A stretch of DNA of 5,817 bases from a virus (lineage: Duplodnaviria > Heunggongvirae > Uroviricota > Caudoviricetes): IMG/VR virus record IMGVR_UViG_2713896784_000022; one strand, given 5' to 3'. The notes under the pieces were generated by a model that was not told the origin of the DNA, ran no database searches, and saw nothing but the letters and a program-made list of their open reading frames with translations. This document shows, one piece after another, positions 1 through 5,401 of this stretch. Numbering within the stretch: position 1 is the first letter of the stretch; every line of letters begins with the position of its first letter. The translations under genes and the position numbers were made by a program.

Positions 1-269
1 GCCACCAGCAGAGGCGGCATTGCCTTTTCGATCGCCGGTAACAGAGCCTGCATTTTTTCAACTGCATCAGGGGTGTCTTTCTCTATCCAGCGGAAAATTT
101 TCTGGGTATTGCGAGCCAGGGCTTCCGGATGGCTGTCGTCGTACAGTTCAGGAAACGTCATACCCAACTCAAAATAAGCCTGGGTTATTCCAGCTGCCGG
201 AACTTTTTCGCCATCAGGACGCGCCCAGGCATTCATCGCCATGCGGATGTGTTCATGCTTGATTTTCAT
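1..269 (-). CDS. Prophage early protein downstream of cro (YdaT/CII-like family, tentative); 3' end cut by window edge
   Basis: Minus-strand ATG at 269 preceded by a purine-rich AAGGGGGGA run (273-281). My own translation is open for all 89 codons to the window edge (MKIKHEHIRMAMNAWARPDGEKVPAAGITQAYFELGMTFPELYDDSHPEALARNTQKIFRWIEKDTPDAVEKMQALLPAIEKAMPPLLV...). Absent from the ORF track only because no stop lies inside the window. Co-directional with the cro-like gene and overlapping it by 17 nt. Family name is from memory of Rac YdaT-like proteins, not verified. Confidence 0.6.
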   Translation of the reverse strand, partial: MKIKHEHIRMAMNAWARPDGEKVPAAGITQAYFELGMTFPELYDDSHPEALARNTQKIFRWIEKDTPDAVEKMQALLPAIEKAMPPLLV

Positions 270-495
270 GAATCCCCCCTTGGTTAGAAGGCGGATTATG
301 ATCAGAATCGGGAATGACAACCGTCGGTATGTGTAACTCATATTTGAGCGCCCCGGCAGTGACTGCCTGAATTAGCAACGCCCATTTCCACGGAACGTCT
401 TCCCCCCACATGCTGACTGTGGTTTTTGACGTTCCTAGAGCGGCGGCTGTTTTAACAACTCCGCCAAAATAGCCTAATACTTCTGATTTTTTCAT
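253..495 (-). CDS. Cro/DicC-like small HTH regulator (80 aa)
   Basis: ORF-track frame 253..543 (minus), trimmed to the ATG at 495, which has a GGAG Shine-Dalgarno about 7 nt upstream (revcomp of 504-507). Product MKKSEVLGYFGGVVKTAAALGTSKTTVSMWGEDVPWKW... has the Cro/YdaS/DicC-type pattern (LG.S...VS.W). Divergent from the repressor gene, as in lambdoid immunity regions. Confidence 0.7.
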   Translation of the reverse strand: MKKSEVLGYFGGVVKTAAALGTSKTTVSMWGEDVPWKWALLIQAVTAGALKYELHIPTVVIPDSDHNPPSNQGGIHENQA

Positions 496-586: not shown

Positions 587-1225
587 ATGAACAAGCAAAC
601 AATATCTGAACGCATAACCCAACGTATGCATGCGCTAAACTTGAAAGGCAAAGACCTTGTCAATGCCACTGGCGCATCAAAAGGCTCCGTAAGTCAATGG
701 ATGAACGGTGGAGGAGCGCCGTCCTCGCGTTACATAAGTTCACTGGCAAAGATATTGAAAGTAAACGAAAATTGGCTTCTTAATGGAGGAGAGTTAAATA
801 CAGGTGATTCGCTTGATCTATCTTTACCGCCGATAAAAACGGTTCCGCTACTATCACTTCAGCAGGCAGCAAGCTGGAGTGATTATATGAAAAATTCCTC
901 AATAACCTCTTGTGTGCAGCTTGTCGGAGAAATCCCGGCCAATACCTTTGCTGTTGTTCTAGAGAGTGACAGTATGTCGACATCTGGTGGTGGAGTTTCC
1001 ATCCCAAATGGTTCAACAGTTTTTGTTGATCCCGATCGAATCGTACAACCAGGAAATATTGTCCTTGCCTTACCCAAAGGGACCACAACGCCTGTCATTC
1101 GCAAACTGGAGATAGAAGGGCCGGATATTCTTTTAGTCCCCACGAATCCTCGCTACCCTTCAATTATGCTGGATGATCTATCTTGCATATTGGGAGTATG
1201 CTTTAAAATTCAACAAGATATTTAA
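587..1225 (+). CDS. CI-type prophage repressor: N-terminal XRE-family HTH plus C-terminal S24 (LexA-like) self-cleaving peptidase domain (212 aa)
   Basis: ORF-track 587..1225. N-terminus (ISERITQRMHALNLKGKDLVNATGASKGSVSQWMNGG) is a typical HTH_XRE segment. C-terminus carries the S24 signature serine in ESDSM and a downstream lysine (VIRKLE), consistent with the LexA/CI Ser-Lys dyad. No obvious Ala-Gly cleavage site seen in the linker. Confidence 0.85.
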   Translation: MNKQTISERITQRMHALNLKGKDLVNATGASKGSVSQWMNGGGAPSSRYISSLAKILKVNENWLLNGGELNTGDSLDLSLPPIKTVPLLSLQQAASWSDYMKNSSITSCVQLVGEIPANTFAVVLESDSMSTSGGGVSIPNGSTVFVDPDRIVQPGNIVLALPKGTTTPVIRKLEIEGPDILLVPTNPRYPSIMLDDLSCILGVCFKIQQDI

Positions 1226-1290: not shown

Positions 1291-1338
1291 ATGTTTTGAT
1301 AAAAAAACATTGACCTTAAATGTTCGTTTTTCTAAACT
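1291..1338 (+). promoter_or_regulatory. Candidate sigma70 promoter with overlapping operator palindrome upstream of the 1518/1670 operon
   Basis: Perfect palindrome ATGTTTT-GATAAA-AAAACAT at 1291-1310, abutting TTGACC (1310-1315, -35-like), a 17-nt spacer, and TAAACT (1333-1338, -10-like). An A-tract lies upstream. The half-sites are the same as those of the 569-588 palindrome. Confidence 0.4.
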
Positions 1339-1517
1339 TCATTCATTCCCTCACCCCGCCCCACAGAATGCAGGGCAATACTTCGAGTTACCAGGCAGTG
1401 GTCAGGGGTTAAGTAGCCAGCCCGAGGCGTAAGAACATGACGGCAGGGTTCAACTTTAATAACTATGCAGCAGGTTTTTGTTCCGCTACCCCGGCGTTAA
1501 GGGGAAATGAGGTCAAC

Positions 1518-1670: not shown

Positions 1671-2320
1671 TGAGGTTGACGATGGAATTTAAAGATTTAC
1701 CTCCTTCAATCCAGGAGATTGCAGCACACACACTTCGTCATCGTCTGAACGAACTTGAATTGGAATCGGTAACGAAAAAAGACACTGATAATATGGCTCG
1801 TAATGTGCGCGATGCGTTTACCGGATTGTATTTCTGTGCGTCTATAAATAAACACGACTCAGAGAGTGTGGCAAATAAAATTGCAGAAACGACAGCGCAA
1901 AACATCAATACGAAACCAACGGAAGAAGAAATTGATCAGTTTGCTCATGATGCTGGTTTAAAAAACAAGAAAGAAAAATCGCCATATGCGGGGAACATGT
2001 TTGTTTATGACAATCTCATCAGAATTCGTGGCGAAATTCCGGCGGAATACCTGGCAAGAGTCCATCAGGCATTGCTTAAAAATTTGGAAACAGAATTATT
2101 TGATGGCAACACTAACGGTTTCTTCATGGTATCAGGCCTTGAGAAAGACTGGGATGCAGAAAAACGCTGGAATGTTGCTACATGGTTATTCAGTAACAGA
2201 GCCGCTGCACTGGAAGCTTCGGCATGTATTTGCGGCCTGTTCTTAACAGACCACAAATATAATCTGGATGTGTACAGTTATATTTACGCTGAACACGGTC
2301 CACTCTGGATTGACTGGTAA
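1670..2320 (+). CDS. Hypothetical protein, 216 aa (212 aa if started at ATG 1682); no recognisable domain
   Basis: ORF-track 1670..2320. ATG at 1670 overlaps the upstream stop (TGATG, translational coupling). Alternative ATG at 1682 has GAGG (1672-1675) 6 nt upstream. No transmembrane segment or motif I can name. Long uninterrupted frame with non-repetitive composition. Confidence 0.65.
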   Translation: MRLTMEFKDLPPSIQEIAAHTLRHRLNELELESVTKKDTDNMARNVRDAFTGLYFCASINKHDSESVANKIAETTAQNINTKPTEEEIDQFAHDAGLKNKKEKSPYAGNMFVYDNLIRIRGEIPAEYLARVHQALLKNLETELFDGNTNGFFMVSGLEKDWDAEKRWNVATWLFSNRAAALEASACICGLFLTDHKYNLDVYSYIYAEHGPLWIDW

Positions 2321-2530
2321 TTATAAGGAAACACCAGCAGGGCCGCGGCGACCAACAGAACGATTAAAATCAATAATGCCATTATAAAGGACATTATTTA
2401 ATTTATCGTCGAATGCTGATTCTGTGAGCCTCAACTCTGAATGAGTTTTTAATAACCCTGATTGCCTGAGTTGATTTACCAGGCATTCAATCTGTTTTTC
2501 AATAAGCGGATTTCTTTTTTTGTTTGGCAT
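2321..2530 (-). CDS. Hypothetical small protein, 69 aa (MPNKKRNPLIEKQIECLVNQLRQSGLL...)
   Basis: ORF-track 2321..2542 (minus). Second ATG at 2530 is preceded by GGAGG with 5-nt spacing (revcomp of 2536-2540), so 2530 is the likelier start. Its stop codon abuts the stop of the convergent 216-aa ORF (2318-2320 / 2321-2323). Confidence 0.5.
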   Translation of the reverse strand: MPNKKRNPLIEKQIECLVNQLRQSGLLKTHSELRLTESAFDDKLNNVLYNGIIDFNRSVGRRGPAGVSL

Positions 2531-2856
2531 TTTATCCTCCATTGAGGTTCTGGGTTAAAAATGGAGACCAACACGCTGTCACGTGTGGTCGTGCGCCGGA
2601 CACGGATAAGAATCCGGTACTGACAGTTTACTGAAAGGATATTTCCCTGAAAAGTCAGTGCATAACGCGAAAGCGTACGGCGAAGCTCTTTCCCTTAGAA
2701 GGCTTGTCGTTAGATTTCTTCGAACGTGCGCTTCCGGTTGTGGCACTCCGCGAAATGGCGCGGCGGTAAGTATGGCGGGGTTATTCCTTCCCCATTGAGG
2801 ACACCGGGTTGTCAGGTTGACCATACGCTTAAGTGACAACCCCGCTGCAACGCCCT

Positions 2857-2906
2857 NNNNNNNNNNNNNNNNNNNNNNNNNNNNNNNNNNNNNNNNNNNN
2901 NNNNNN
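2857..2906. other. Assembly gap (50 N), flanked on both sides by the identical 13-mer GCTGCAACGCCCT
   Basis: Run of 50 N at 2857-2906. The 13 nt at 2844-2856 are identical to the 13 nt at 2907-2919. Confidence 0.95.
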
Positions 2907-2930
2907 GCTGCAACGCCCTCTGTTATCAAT

Positions 2931-2988
2931 TTTCTGGTGACGTTTGGCGGTATCAGTTTTACTCCGTGGCTGCTCTGCCGCCCTTTTT
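2931..2988 (+). ncRNA. dicF: DicF-like antisense sRNA (ftsZ translation inhibitor of Qin/dic-type prophages)
   Basis: TTTCTGGTGACGTTTGGCGGTATCAGTTTTACTCCGTGGCTGCTCTGCCGCCCTTTTT matches my memory of E. coli DicF nearly base-for-base (one or two differences). It ends in a GGCGG...CCGCC stem plus U-run and sits about 170 bp upstream of a DicB-like gene, as in the K-12 dicB operon. The exact 5' end (RNase E processing site) cannot be read from sequence. Confidence 0.7.
2946..2988 (+). terminator. Rho-independent terminator forming the 3' end of DicF
   Basis: GGCGG (2946-2950) pairs with CCGCC (2978-2982), followed by C and TTTTT (2984-2988). The loop is large (27 nt), consistent with the DicF structure rather than a minimal terminator. 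Confidence 0.55.
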
Positions 2989-3623: not shown

Positions 3624-4868
3624 ATGAGCACTGATAAAGAAGAATTTGCGCTATATTGCGAAGCAAAAAATGACAAAGTCAGAAAACGTCTGGGAATTAA
3701 AGGTGGTTTTTACTGGACTACAGCAAAAAAATTATCTGTTGCCATCTCCCGCTGCATTACCGCAATGGATGACAACGATTATGATGAAGACGACTTTAAA
3801 AAACCCGTTCGCGTCCATTTACCCGTTGTGAATGACCTTCCACCTGAAGGCGTGTTTGATACCGAATTCTGCAACCGATACGAAAAAGGCGGGGAAGATG
3901 GCATTACAATGGTATTTATCGCGCCCTCTCCCTCCGTGCAGGAGAAACCAGCCAGTACTGACAATACCAACGTCAACGGCGAAGACATGACGGAGATTGA
4001 GGAGAATATGCTCCTGCCGGTTTCTGGTCAGGAGCTGCCCATTCGCTGGCTTGCGCAACACGGCAGCGAAAAACCAGTAACGCACGTTGCACGGGAAGAA
4101 CTTCAGGCATTACATATAGCACGGGCGGAAGAACTGCCGGCTGTTACTGCCCTGGCCATTTCTCACAAAACAAAGCTGCTCGACCCGCTGGAGATTCGCG
4201 ACCTTCACAAACTGGTACGCGACACTGACAAAGTTTTCCCTAATCCCGGTAATTCAGACCTGGGACTGATAACTGCTTTTTTCGAGGCATACCTGGACGC
4301 TGACTACACTGATCGGGGTCTGCTGACAAAAGAGTGGATGAAAGGAAATCGTGTTTCGCGTATCACCCGTACGGCTTCCGGTGCAAATGCCGGTGGCGGG
4401 AACAAAACCGATCGCAATCCGAATTTAGTACACACCTTCGATACGCTGGATGTGGAGATTGCAGCAGCCACACTTCCGATGGATTTTAATATTTATGAAA
4501 TTCCGGGCAGCGTTTATCGTCGCGCAAAAGAAATCGTCCTGAAAAGAGAAAGTCCGTTCAAAGAATGGTCCGCAGCACTTCGCGCAACCCCGGGTATTCT
4601 GGACTATTCCCGCGCCGCTATTTTTGCACTTATCCGGAGCGCTCACCCTGAGTTTTATCACTACCCGGGACGCCTTCAGGGGTATATCAACGCCTACTTA
4701 ACGGAGACTGATCACGAGAACCCCAGCAAGGAAACTCTCACTGCTGCACGACATACACCGGAAAAAGATATCCTGGAAGAAGTTAACCGCGAACTGTCTG
4801 CTAAGCAGGAAACAGAAGAAGAAAATGATGAAGAAAAACCGCAACCATCTTGCGCAATGGCAGAATGA
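3624..4868 (+). CDS. Hypothetical acidic protein, 414 aa, unknown function (position corresponds to ydfE of the K-12 Qin locus)
   Basis: ORF-track 3624..4868. GAGG about 7 nt upstream of the ATG. Acidic clusters near the N-terminus (DDNDYDEDDF) and at the C-terminal tail (ETEEENDEEKPQP). No integrase, nuclease or NTPase motif recognised. Its stop lies 16 nt inside the integrase-remnant frame. Confidence 0.7.
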   Translation: MSTDKEEFALYCEAKNDKVRKRLGIKGGFYWTTAKKLSVAISRCITAMDDNDYDEDDFKKPVRVHLPVVNDLPPEGVFDTEFCNRYEKGGEDGITMVFIAPSPSVQEKPASTDNTNVNGEDMTEIEENMLLPVSGQELPIRWLAQHGSEKPVTHVAREELQALHIARAEELPAVTALAISHKTKLLDPLEIRDLHKLVRDTDKVFPNPGNSDLGLITAFFEAYLDADYTDRGLLTKEWMKGNRVSRITRTASGANAGGGNKTDRNPNLVHTFDTLDVEIAAATLPMDFNIYEIPGSVYRRAKEIVLKRESPFKEWSAALRATPGILDYSRAAIFALIRSAHPEFYHYPGRLQGYINAYLTETDHENPSKETLTAARHTPEKDILEEVNRELSAKQETEEENDEEKPQPSCAMAE

Positions 4869-5401
4869 TAATCAGAAGAAATCTGGCAAAAGACCGTTTT
4901 ACAGTACCAAAAACACAGGCGGGAACCAATCGTGTGATTCACCTTATTAAGCCCGCAATCGACGCTCTCCGGAGTCAGATGGCACTAACGAGACTGAGCA
5001 AAGAGCATATCATCGATGTTCACCTCAGAGAATTCGGCAGAACAGAGAAACAAAAATGTACCTTTGTTTTTCAACCTGAAGTGTCAGCGAAAGTAAAAAA
5101 TTATGGCGACCATTTTACCGTTGACTCAATAAGGCAGATGTGGGACGCAGCGGTAAAGCGTGCCGGAATCCGCCATCGCAAATCGTATCAGTCGAGACAC
5201 ACTTATGCCTGCTGGTCGTTAACAGCAGGAGCTAACCCGGCATTCATTGCAAACCAGATGGGCCATGCAGATGCGCAAATGGTGTTTCAGGTGTACGGGA
5301 AATGGATGTCAGAAAATAATAATGCGCAGGTAACGCTGTTAAATACACAGTTAAGCGAGTTTGCCCCAACCATGCCCCATAACGAAGCGATGAAAAGTTA
5401 A
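4850..5401 (+). pseudogene. Truncated tyrosine recombinase (phage integrase) C-terminal catalytic fragment
   Basis: ORF-track 4850..5401 (TTG start; in-frame stop at 4829-4831). Retains the beta-hairpin lysine context (VPKTQAGTNRVIHL), the box II motif SRHTYACWSLTAGANPAFIANQMGHADAQ, and the nucleophile tyrosine (VFQVYGKWM). The N-terminal arm/core-binding domains and the box I arginine (TGxR) are absent. The integrase frame is closed 7 codons upstream of 4850 and the preceding sequence encodes the unrelated 414-aa ORF in another frame. Confidence 0.65.

Follow-up and report, generated by a model that had tools for sequence, protein, structure and literature searches.

The 5,817-nucleotide (nt) window that we analysed, IMG/VR virus record IMGVR_UViG_2713896784_000022 (Caudoviricetes), raises the question of what a 69-amino-acid (aa) open reading frame (ORF) is doing on the minus strand between a 212-aa plus-strand gene and the dicF and dicB genes. 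The sequence of the window matches, at 100% identity, the early part of a defective lambdoid prophage carried by Escherichia coli O157:H7 and known in strain Sakai as prophage Sp11. In the Qin prophage of K-12, dicA, ydfA, ydfB, ydfC, dicF and dicB lie on a single strand, as an earlier note made from this sequence alone had said; ydfC is followed there directly by the dicF precursor and the minus-strand ORF is absent. Our best reading, to which we give a probability of about 0.5, is that the ORF is an accessory gene expressed in the lysogen that acts with its convergent partner, by a mechanism that we infer.

A convergent small gene under purifying selection

The elements of the small gene are as follows.

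2321-2530, minus strand: the 69-aa ORF (ECs2212)
2536-2540, minus strand: Shine-Dalgarno sequence GGAGG, separated by a 5-nt spacer (ATAAA) from the ATG at 2530-2528 and invariant in 15 leader variants
2515-2521, minus strand: run of seven A residues (A7) in codons 4-6, a site of A7 to A6 frameshift (codon 5) in relatives
2284-2394, minus strand: 36-aa hydrophobic ORF in an alternative frame (MSFIMALLILIVLLVAAALLVF...), resembling a small membrane (type I) toxin

The 69-aa product starts at an internal ATG (2530) within a longer minus-strand ORF of 73 aa (2321..2542). Its stop codon (2321-2323) touches the TAA stop (2318-2320) of the facing plus-strand gene, leaving a gap of 0 nt, and a terminator scan found nothing terminator-like around this junction on either strand. 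The stop-to-stop arrangement, the GGAGG and the lack of room for a terminator had all been described in the earlier note, and they hold. The facing ORF had been given as 216 aa and is corrected here to 212 aa, with a start at 1682 that has its own GAGG 6 nt upstream, begins with an MEFKD sequence kept in all relatives and coincides with the RefSeq start.

The bare pattern of an ORF behind a GGAGG could arise by chance. In shuffled windows, GGAGG-N3-9-ATG has an expected count of 0.89 and occurred at least once in 117 of 200 shuffles, and ORFs of 60-100 aa are common across the six frames of the window. We therefore count the 69-aa ORF as valid because of comparative evidence and published expression data, not because of the motif. 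Across 16 distinct 210-nt alleles, variable sites are distributed 14/12/35 over the three codon positions, and the ratio of nonsynonymous to synonymous polymorphism (pN/pS) is 0.26 in the annotated frame versus 1.3-1.6 in the other same-strand frames. These data show that the ORF is a real protein-coding gene under purifying selection. The 36-aa frame was rejected as a type I toxin, with a pN/pS above 1 and a start codon that is lost in Salmonella; the GC-rich tail of the 69-aa gene gives rise to it as a by-product.

The gene is annotated as ECs2212 (ECs_2212) in Sakai and as EDL933_RS09905 in EDL933 (WP_001133037.1, a hypothetical protein in RefSeq). It is present in 597 of 5,426 complete E. 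coli genomes (11%), usually in a single copy per genome, and its carriers include O157, O121 and O111 strains. GC content is 0.39-0.43 over the ORF and 0.38-0.52 nearby, with no distinct island of composition.

Expression in the uninduced lysogen

In a Ribo-seq study of Sakai, ECs2212 is on a list of the 250 shortest annotated genes whose ribosome coverage value (RCV) is at least 0.25 (PMC5597208, table S2). The values below come from that published supplementary table, which covers uninduced Sakai, and were not generated in the present analysis (RPKM, reads per kilobase per million).

ECs2212, lysogeny broth (LB): RNA RPKM 46.2, footprint RPKM 34.0, RCV 0.74, coverage 0.71
ECs2212, brain heart infusion (BHI): RNA RPKM 23.9, footprint RPKM 24.8, RCV 0.95, coverage 0.73
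ECs2212, 14 °C plus 4% NaCl: RNA RPKM 13.8, footprint RPKM 0.4, RCV 0.03, coverage 0.21
dicB (ECs2214), LB: RNA RPKM 6.9, footprint RPKM 1.5, RCV 0.38, coverage 0.07

The 69-aa gene is thus shown to be transcribed and translated in an uninduced O157 lysogen in which dicB is nearly silent. Under 14 °C plus 4% NaCl, ECs2212 footprints were down about 60-fold and RNA less than 2-fold; the table marks the fall in RCV from 0.95 (37 °C) to 0.03 as significant (log2 -3.3), but the stress was a combined one and depresses translation globally (PMC5597208). The earlier note had proposed an independently expressed moron, for example under lysogeny, and had named the lack of a minus-strand transcript or footprint over the ORF as grounds for refutation. 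Both are present, with 71% of the ORF covered by footprints in LB, and the moron proposal is supported by purifying selection, by the absence of the gene from K-12 and by expression without induction.

The small gene is paired with the C-terminal domain of the facing protein

The facing gene has two parts.

1682-2320, plus strand: 212-aa gene (ECs2211, phrog_2151)
its N-terminal part: 'MEFKD' domain of about 55 aa, shared by all alleles of the slot described below
1973-2320, plus strand: its C-terminal domain (C-domain, residues 98-212), specific to this cassette

A search of IMG/VR seeded by the C-domain gave 76 informative loci, of which 65 had the 69-aa gene intact, with 0 nt between the two stops, 8 carried a frameshifted copy and 3 carried another gene. 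With the frameshifted copies included, the 69-aa gene stands stop to stop with the C-domain in 73 of the 76 loci, and no 69-aa gene without the C-domain was found among the loci examined. Proteins resembling the 212-aa protein at 84%, 75% and 70% identity are each stop to stop with a 69-aa gene.

The frameshifted copies have six A residues in place of seven (A6) and read MPNKKEIRLLKNRLNAW*. They were found in 7 of about 75 loci seeded by the leader and in 8 of the 76 seeded by the C-domain, two samples that overlap. In A6 loci, about 10% of related loci, the product is cut to 17 aa and one linked substitution occurs alongside. The A6 state could be a real lineage-specific pseudogene, slippage-prone switching or a homopolymer sequencing error.

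The pairing extends to distant homologues. A profile search of 1.84 billion representative proteins returned nine hits, four of them 64-78 aa long at 43-53% identity, and a follow-up profile search added more Salmonella members (64-69 aa, 44-56% identity). These remote homologues conserve the core, and the 64-aa members retain a GRRGPAGVxL-type tail. Their convergent partners in Salmonella are 217-307 aa long and overlap them at the 3' end by 11-53 nt; the C-domain of these partners matches residues ~100-190 of the 212-aa protein at 32-41% identity (E about 1e-13). These partners have different N-termini, one of them an XRE-type helix-turn-helix (HTH), and lie in elements with Cox-type immunity. 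In one Salmonella locus (L002) the C-domain is a free-standing 126-aa ORF that still abuts the 69-aa gene. The 69-aa family and the C-domain are thus kept together at 32-56% identity in Salmonella elements, always tail to tail. A scan of GTDB representative genomes for the C-domain found no relative. Among cultured phages (INPHARED) the 69-aa protein was unmatched and its partner was matched over its N-terminal 86 residues only.

Because the pairing survives to 32-56% identity in elements with other N-termini, we suggest that the 69-aa protein and the C-terminal domain of the 212-aa protein may form a functional two-gene module, a proposal to which these sequence comparisons give roughly even odds. 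The earlier note had raised a partnership with the facing ORF and asked whether the two co-occur. They do in 73 loci, eight of them frameshifted, and in the distant Salmonella homologues, and do not in the remaining three of the 76; what supports a partnership is co-occurrence.

One allele of a hypervariable slot

Comparison of related loci shows that the site between the second gene of the early-left operon and the dicF precursor behaves as a hypervariable slot, on the strand opposite to the early-left (pL/dicB) operon. The same leader of about 100 nt precedes at least nine unrelated small ORFs, and the 69-aa ORF is one allele among many behind this conserved, structured leader, a context that the earlier note had missed. 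The other alleles are these.

61 aa (MSDKLINPF)
59 aa (MSEQFNPLRR)
100 aa, YmfI-like (NF051477 match at E 8e-32, under the family cut-off)
64 aa (MSEQELKLGACY)
61 or 80 aa, zinc-ribbon-like
92 aa
77 aa, in a second EDL933 prophage
35 aa, in phage phiP27

Every slot ORF tested against PHROGs fell in families of unknown function; for the 69-aa protein this was phrog_4274, matched over its full length (E 1.2e-51, residues 1-69 against profile positions 1-69 of 69).

The borders of the slot are constant: on one side the first ~55 codons of the plus-strand MEFKD gene, on the other the minus-strand leader. The facing plus-strand proteins share the MEFKD start of about 55 residues and diverge afterwards, and each type of small ORF is paired one-to-one with one partner C-terminus. 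The 3' ends of small ORF and partner have a gap of 0 in the 69-aa allele, overlap by 14-120 nt in others and lie 186 nt apart in one allele. Constant borders around a covarying middle suggest a unit of exchange that begins near codon 55 of the plus-strand gene and extends as far as the small ORF's start codon. Shiga toxin (Stx) phages also have the leader and the MEFKD domain.

Two further arrangements were seen. Prophages of Salmonella enterica (L002, 4144-5627; L097/L098) carry 64-aa and 69-aa cassettes in tandem, each with its own leader, and in some of them the C-domain forms a separate ORF of 126 aa. In L099/L100 (3299-3934, minus strand) a rare 212-like variant ending WIDWFKG is accompanied by a coiled-coil and zinc-ribbon protein of 172-211 aa in place of the 69-aa gene; the C-terminus of this protein has a 'FHISK' motif in common with the 61/80-aa zinc-ribbon slot allele.

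The leader is predicted to be structured

The ~100 nt up to the ATG are nearly constant among slot alleles, better conserved than any ORF behind them and present in several copies per O157 genome. RNAalifold predicted three hairpins in this leader, and a probable start region lies upstream.

2621-2660, minus strand: probable transcription start region, with a weak TTTTCA-17-TAAACT candidate (-10 at 2625-2630), placed from the RS09580 paralogue
2591-2620, minus strand: hairpin A (GUACCGGAU...GUCCGGCGCAC), conserved also in K-12, within the plus-strand dicF precursor
2553-2590, minus strand: hairpin B (GACCACACG-TGACAG-CGUGUUGGUC, 2566-2590) and then UCCAUUUUUAAC, terminator- or attenuator-like
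2536-2567, minus strand: hairpin C in the RNAalifold consensus, UCUCCAUU paired with AAUGGAGG, Shine-Dalgarno sequence included

In the consensus, hairpin C joins positions 66-73 to 90-97 in 8 pairs, two of which show compensatory change. Single-sequence folds recovered hairpins A and B in 7 of 7 variants (z-scores -2.6 to -4.6), and the pairing of CUCCAU with the Shine-Dalgarno sequence in 5 of 7; the two type III leaders pair the Shine-Dalgarno region otherwise. Hairpin B, which is directly followed by UCCAUUUUU, resembles, in these predicted folds, a minus-strand attenuator or intrinsic terminator, and its U-run is interrupted in type II and III leaders. It occurs in four sequence versions, among them type II, whose loop is inverted, and types III and IV, in which unrelated sequences keep the stem through compensatory pairs. 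In the L093 and L011 leaders, compared with window positions 2566-2590, the stem is kept and the 6-nt loop is reverse-complemented. The two orientations suggest either inversion at a palindrome or selection on a symmetric DNA or RNA element. The leader region (2531-2660) had no Rfam match on either strand at E <= 1; in a search of the window, DicF (75 bits) was the only family hit and STnc100 fell below its cut-off.

The promoter suggested in the earlier note (GTGACA, 17 nt, TTTAAC) does not stand: it lies within hairpin B, its -10 box has no A2 or T6, and it is not conserved across leader variants. Our own scan proposed TTAACC-18-TAAAAT, which overlaps the ATG and so cannot serve the 69-aa ORF, and found nothing reaching threshold upstream of the leader. 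A paralogous slot gene of EDL933, RS09580, has a plus-strand transcription start site (TSS) 117 nt before its ATG, upstream of hairpin A, in one Cappable-seq condition only. By analogy with this paralogue, minus-strand transcription in our window probably starts within 2621-2660. A BPROM promoter has been predicted 213 nt upstream of ECs2212, at about window position 2743 (PMC5597208).

The prophage setting

The other features of the window are given below.

253-495, minus strand: Cro-like gene
587-1225, plus strand: S24 cI-like repressor (HTH plus S24 peptidase, intact at 212 aa)
1310-1345, plus strand: early-left (pL / dicBp-like) promoter TTGACC-17-TAAACT (1310-1338, from the promoter scan) with its transcription start
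ending at 1670: DUF1391 (ydfA-like) gene
2932-2983, plus strand: dicF small RNA (sRNA) gene (Rfam RF00039, 75 bits, E 9e-16), downstream of the slot on the operon strand
beyond dicF: dicB (ECs2214 in Sakai), a DUF1482 gene, and recE and int fragments

The Cappable-seq TSS of EDL933 at 1895862 corresponds to window position 1345, exactly 7 nt past the predicted early-left -10, and was seen in most conditions. In K-12, DicF must be processed from the read-through transcript of the full operon (PMC10448788). Early-left transcripts in our window must therefore cross the convergent gene before they reach dicF.

Several side observations concern the flanks. Identical O157 genomes in RefSeq annotate only the C-terminal 112 aa of the cI-like repressor, as a 'LexA family protein'. 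At 2857-2906 there are 50 consecutive N, with a copy of the 13-mer gctgcaacgccct on either side (window 2844-2919); because reference genomes are exactly 63 nt shorter here, we take it to be an assembly or scaffolding artefact, ~25 nt upstream of dicF, and not biology. A Cappable-seq start of EDL933 assigned to dicB (1894339) maps exactly onto the 5' end of dicF (window 2932, plus strand); work in K-12 ascribed that end to RNase E processing and found no internal promoter. The RNase III-made 5' end of the 190-nt DicF precursor of K-12 would map ~137 nt upstream of dicF (window ~2732, plus strand), a region that a minus-strand transcript begun upstream of the leader would render double-stranded. 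The 414-aa RecE-like ORF (Exonuc_VIII N-terminal part) and the 183-aa integrase fragment are both truncated (3624-5401, plus strand). The DinI-like gene of the next prophage, Sp12, comes after them, and Sp11 is defective at its left end.

Weighing the explanations

If the 69-aa gene acts with its convergent partner, as we propose, events might run as follows. In the lysogen, a weak promoter upstream of the leader would drive the small gene, and the opening of hairpin C would allow its translation. The small protein, of two helices, would bind the C-domain of its partner and so modulate or neutralise it. When the early-left promoter fires, convergent transcription over the spacer-less junction would lower expression of the small gene and raise that of the partner, so that the two would be expressed reciprocally. 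It is rather doubtful that all of these steps hold together.

A number of observations weigh against this proposal. The 69-aa ORF is frameshifted or replaced in 11 of the 76 loci that keep the partner (~14%); the small protein is thus not indispensable, and the partner can exist alone. Some slot alleles face plus-strand proteins of 52-65 aa that have no C-domain, so that a partner domain is not a general rule of the slot. Both points argue against a strict antidote role, and the co-occurrence itself could come from linkage inside a segment whose recombination is confined to its borders. K-12, which has no minus-strand ORF, nevertheless keeps hairpin A and a remnant of hairpin B, and these hairpins may therefore serve the plus-strand dicF precursor. 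The promoter is only a candidate, and the EDL933 Cappable-seq tables list no TSS for the 69-aa ORF, a gap that may stem from reads lost at the multi-copy leader.

Searches for a function returned little. The homology and structure search that the earlier note had proposed for the 69-aa product yielded phrog_4274 and the remote homologues; Pfam, NCBIfam, PADLOC and PDB sequence searches gave no match for it or for the 212-aa protein. The AlphaFold models are weak: that of the 69-aa protein has helices at 8-24 and 42-58 and a low-confidence tail (predicted local distance difference test score, pLDDT, 57), and that of the 212-aa protein has a helical N-terminal half and an alpha/beta C-terminal half (pLDDT 64). 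A Foldseek search against PDB was made with the 212-aa model only, the 69-aa model being left out as unreliable, and found nothing below E 0.001 and a template modelling (TM) score of at most 0.29.

A rival reading is a moron functionally untied to the 212-aa protein, whose target would be the host or an incoming phage (through exclusion, anti-defence or host regulation) and which would be co-inherited with its neighbour through recombination at the borders. Such a gene would be at home among many unrelated small ORFs behind the same leader, some of them facing proteins with no extra domain; its expression in the uninduced lysogen and its frameshift or replacement in 11 of 76 partner-keeping loci also speak for this reading. 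What speaks against an untied gene is the pairing kept in Salmonella elements whose immunity regions and N-terminal domains are different, the free-standing C-domain of L002 that still adjoins the 69-aa gene, and the absence of any 69-aa gene without the C-domain among the loci examined. We regard an untied moron as a possibility, at odds well short of even.

The two-gene module could also be part of something larger. The slot might be a system of exchangeable cassettes, not described before, in the early-left operon of dicBF-type prophages, in which a constant N-terminal module would carry swappable C-terminal effectors, each with a cognate small inhibitor on the opposite strand, behind a leader that would sequester the Shine-Dalgarno sequence in a temperature- or signal-sensitive way; on induction, convergent early-left transcription would shut off transcription of the inhibitor. 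This extended form is unlikely as it stands. If true, the slot would amount to a polymorphic effector/antidote system, convergent in layout, that serves conflict between phage and host or between phages.

The earlier note had also considered a roadblock that insulates dicF and dicB. Because the protein sequence and the Shine-Dalgarno site are conserved, this cannot be the only role, and it may be an added effect. In its full form, the idea is that convergent transcription or antisense RNA arising at the leader promoter shields the toxic dicF/dicB from leaky early-left transcription and that the peptide is incidental. In its favour, there is neither spacer nor terminator between the convergent genes; the early-left TSS is seen in most EDL933 conditions, yet dicB RNA is low in Sakai; K-12 DicF has to be processed from whole-operon read-through (PMC10448788); and the slot tolerates any ORF. 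An incidental peptide is hard to reconcile with a protein frame under purifying selection, an invariant strong Shine-Dalgarno site, ribosome footprints over 71% of the ORF and protein motifs kept in remote homologues, and K-12 and many other dicBF operons do without a minus-strand ORF. We consider a purely RNA- or transcription-level role improbable.

Still less probable is that the leader is the functional unit, either as a short RNA with its 3' end at hairpin B and the U-run or as processing signals of the plus-strand dicF precursor, with the ORFs as read-through passengers. The leader is more conserved than the ORFs downstream and present in several copies per O157 genome, hairpin B with its U-run resembles an intrinsic terminator, hairpin A is kept in K-12, and the TSS of the paralogue lies upstream of hairpin A. 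Set against this are the selection on the ORF and its translation, the interruption of the U-run in type II and III leaders and the lack of an Rfam match in the region on either strand at E <= 1. Finally, a misannotated chance ORF, as might be argued from a motif expected by chance and from the want of a family or fold match, is contradicted by selection, conservation and ribosome profiling and can be dismissed.

Comparison with known systems

Morons, in the definition of Juhala et al. (2000) as quoted in PMC4104026, are extra genes between conserved phage genes that are expressed from a repressed prophage. The 69-aa gene resembles them in being present or absent at the same position among relatives (K-12 Qin lacks it and other prophages have other ORFs there), in its expression in the uninduced lysogen, and in its small size and unknown or accessory function. 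It differs in showing no terminator-like site in the scan, in having only a candidate promoter and an unremarkable composition, and in sharing a structured leader with at least eight other alleles while being locked tail to tail with a covarying partner region.

The sieB gene of the Rac prophage and ymfI of e14 lie on the strand opposite to the early-left operon of cryptic lambdoid prophages. The likeness is one of position, that of an antisense gene within the early-left region beside the immunity genes, and the 100-aa slot allele matches the YmfI model below its cut-off (NF051477, E 8e-32). In sequence, the 69-aa protein resembles neither of the two, and SieB, a larger membrane protein, is known to act in exclusion.

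As in type II toxin-antitoxin and abortive infection (Abi) pairs, a small protein is closely linked to a larger one and the pair is kept across divergent mobile elements. Unlike those pairs, the genes here are convergent stop to stop and not co-transcribed, neither protein has a PADLOC, Pfam or NCBIfam toxin or antitoxin match, and the small gene is lost in ~14% of partner-keeping loci. Polymorphic toxin/immunity cassettes (contact-dependent inhibition (CDI), Rhs and colicin-type) offer another parallel, with a constant N-terminal ~55 aa and a C-terminus that covaries with a small neighbouring ORF. Here, however, the small gene is on the opposite strand, the partners are far smaller (52-212 aa) and lack a domain for secretion or delivery, the searches matched no toxin domain, and some alleles have no C-terminal extension. 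Type I toxin-antitoxin systems are a poor match, since the hydrophobic 36-aa frame is not under selection (pN/pS above 1).

The leader invites comparison with those that sequester the Shine-Dalgarno sequence (RNA thermometers and riboregulators), through the predicted pairing of CUCCAU with the ribosome-binding site and its compensatory change. It also recalls early-terminated sRNAs from 5' untranslated regions (UTRs), such as StxS (PMC7547250), in that a terminator-like hairpin precedes the hairpin that pairs the Shine-Dalgarno sequence. The ~60-fold fall of ECs2212 footprints at 14 °C plus 4% NaCl might reflect such a leader, but the stress is combined and lowers translation globally. Unlike these known elements, our leader has no Rfam family match and is known from predicted folds.

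A search of the literature turned up no paper on the 69-aa gene or the slot and no main-text mention of ybl81 or of ECs2211-2213; Tree 2014 and the Pas-sRNA papers concern other prophage positions. The gene itself already has an annotation, a PHROG family and an entry in a published Ribo-seq table, and it is best filed as an uncharacterised prophage accessory (moron) gene. What is new here is that the small ORFs share a leader, that the slot has many alleles and that the convergent pairing is conserved.

Significance

Early-left operons of the dicBF type occur in most E. coli genomes and encode an sRNA and a protein that block cell division and affect virulence regulation and phage resistance. 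An antisense slot that is expressed in the lysogen and encodes at least nine small proteins, unrelated to one another, identifies a hotspot where accessory genes, possibly related to conflict, accumulate. Its shared leader is a testable control element, and the conserved pairing with a 115-aa domain of unknown fold provides a concrete two-protein hypothesis. Because DicF and DicB come from operon read-through, and those transcripts must cross a convergent gene, the arrangement may affect the output of both.

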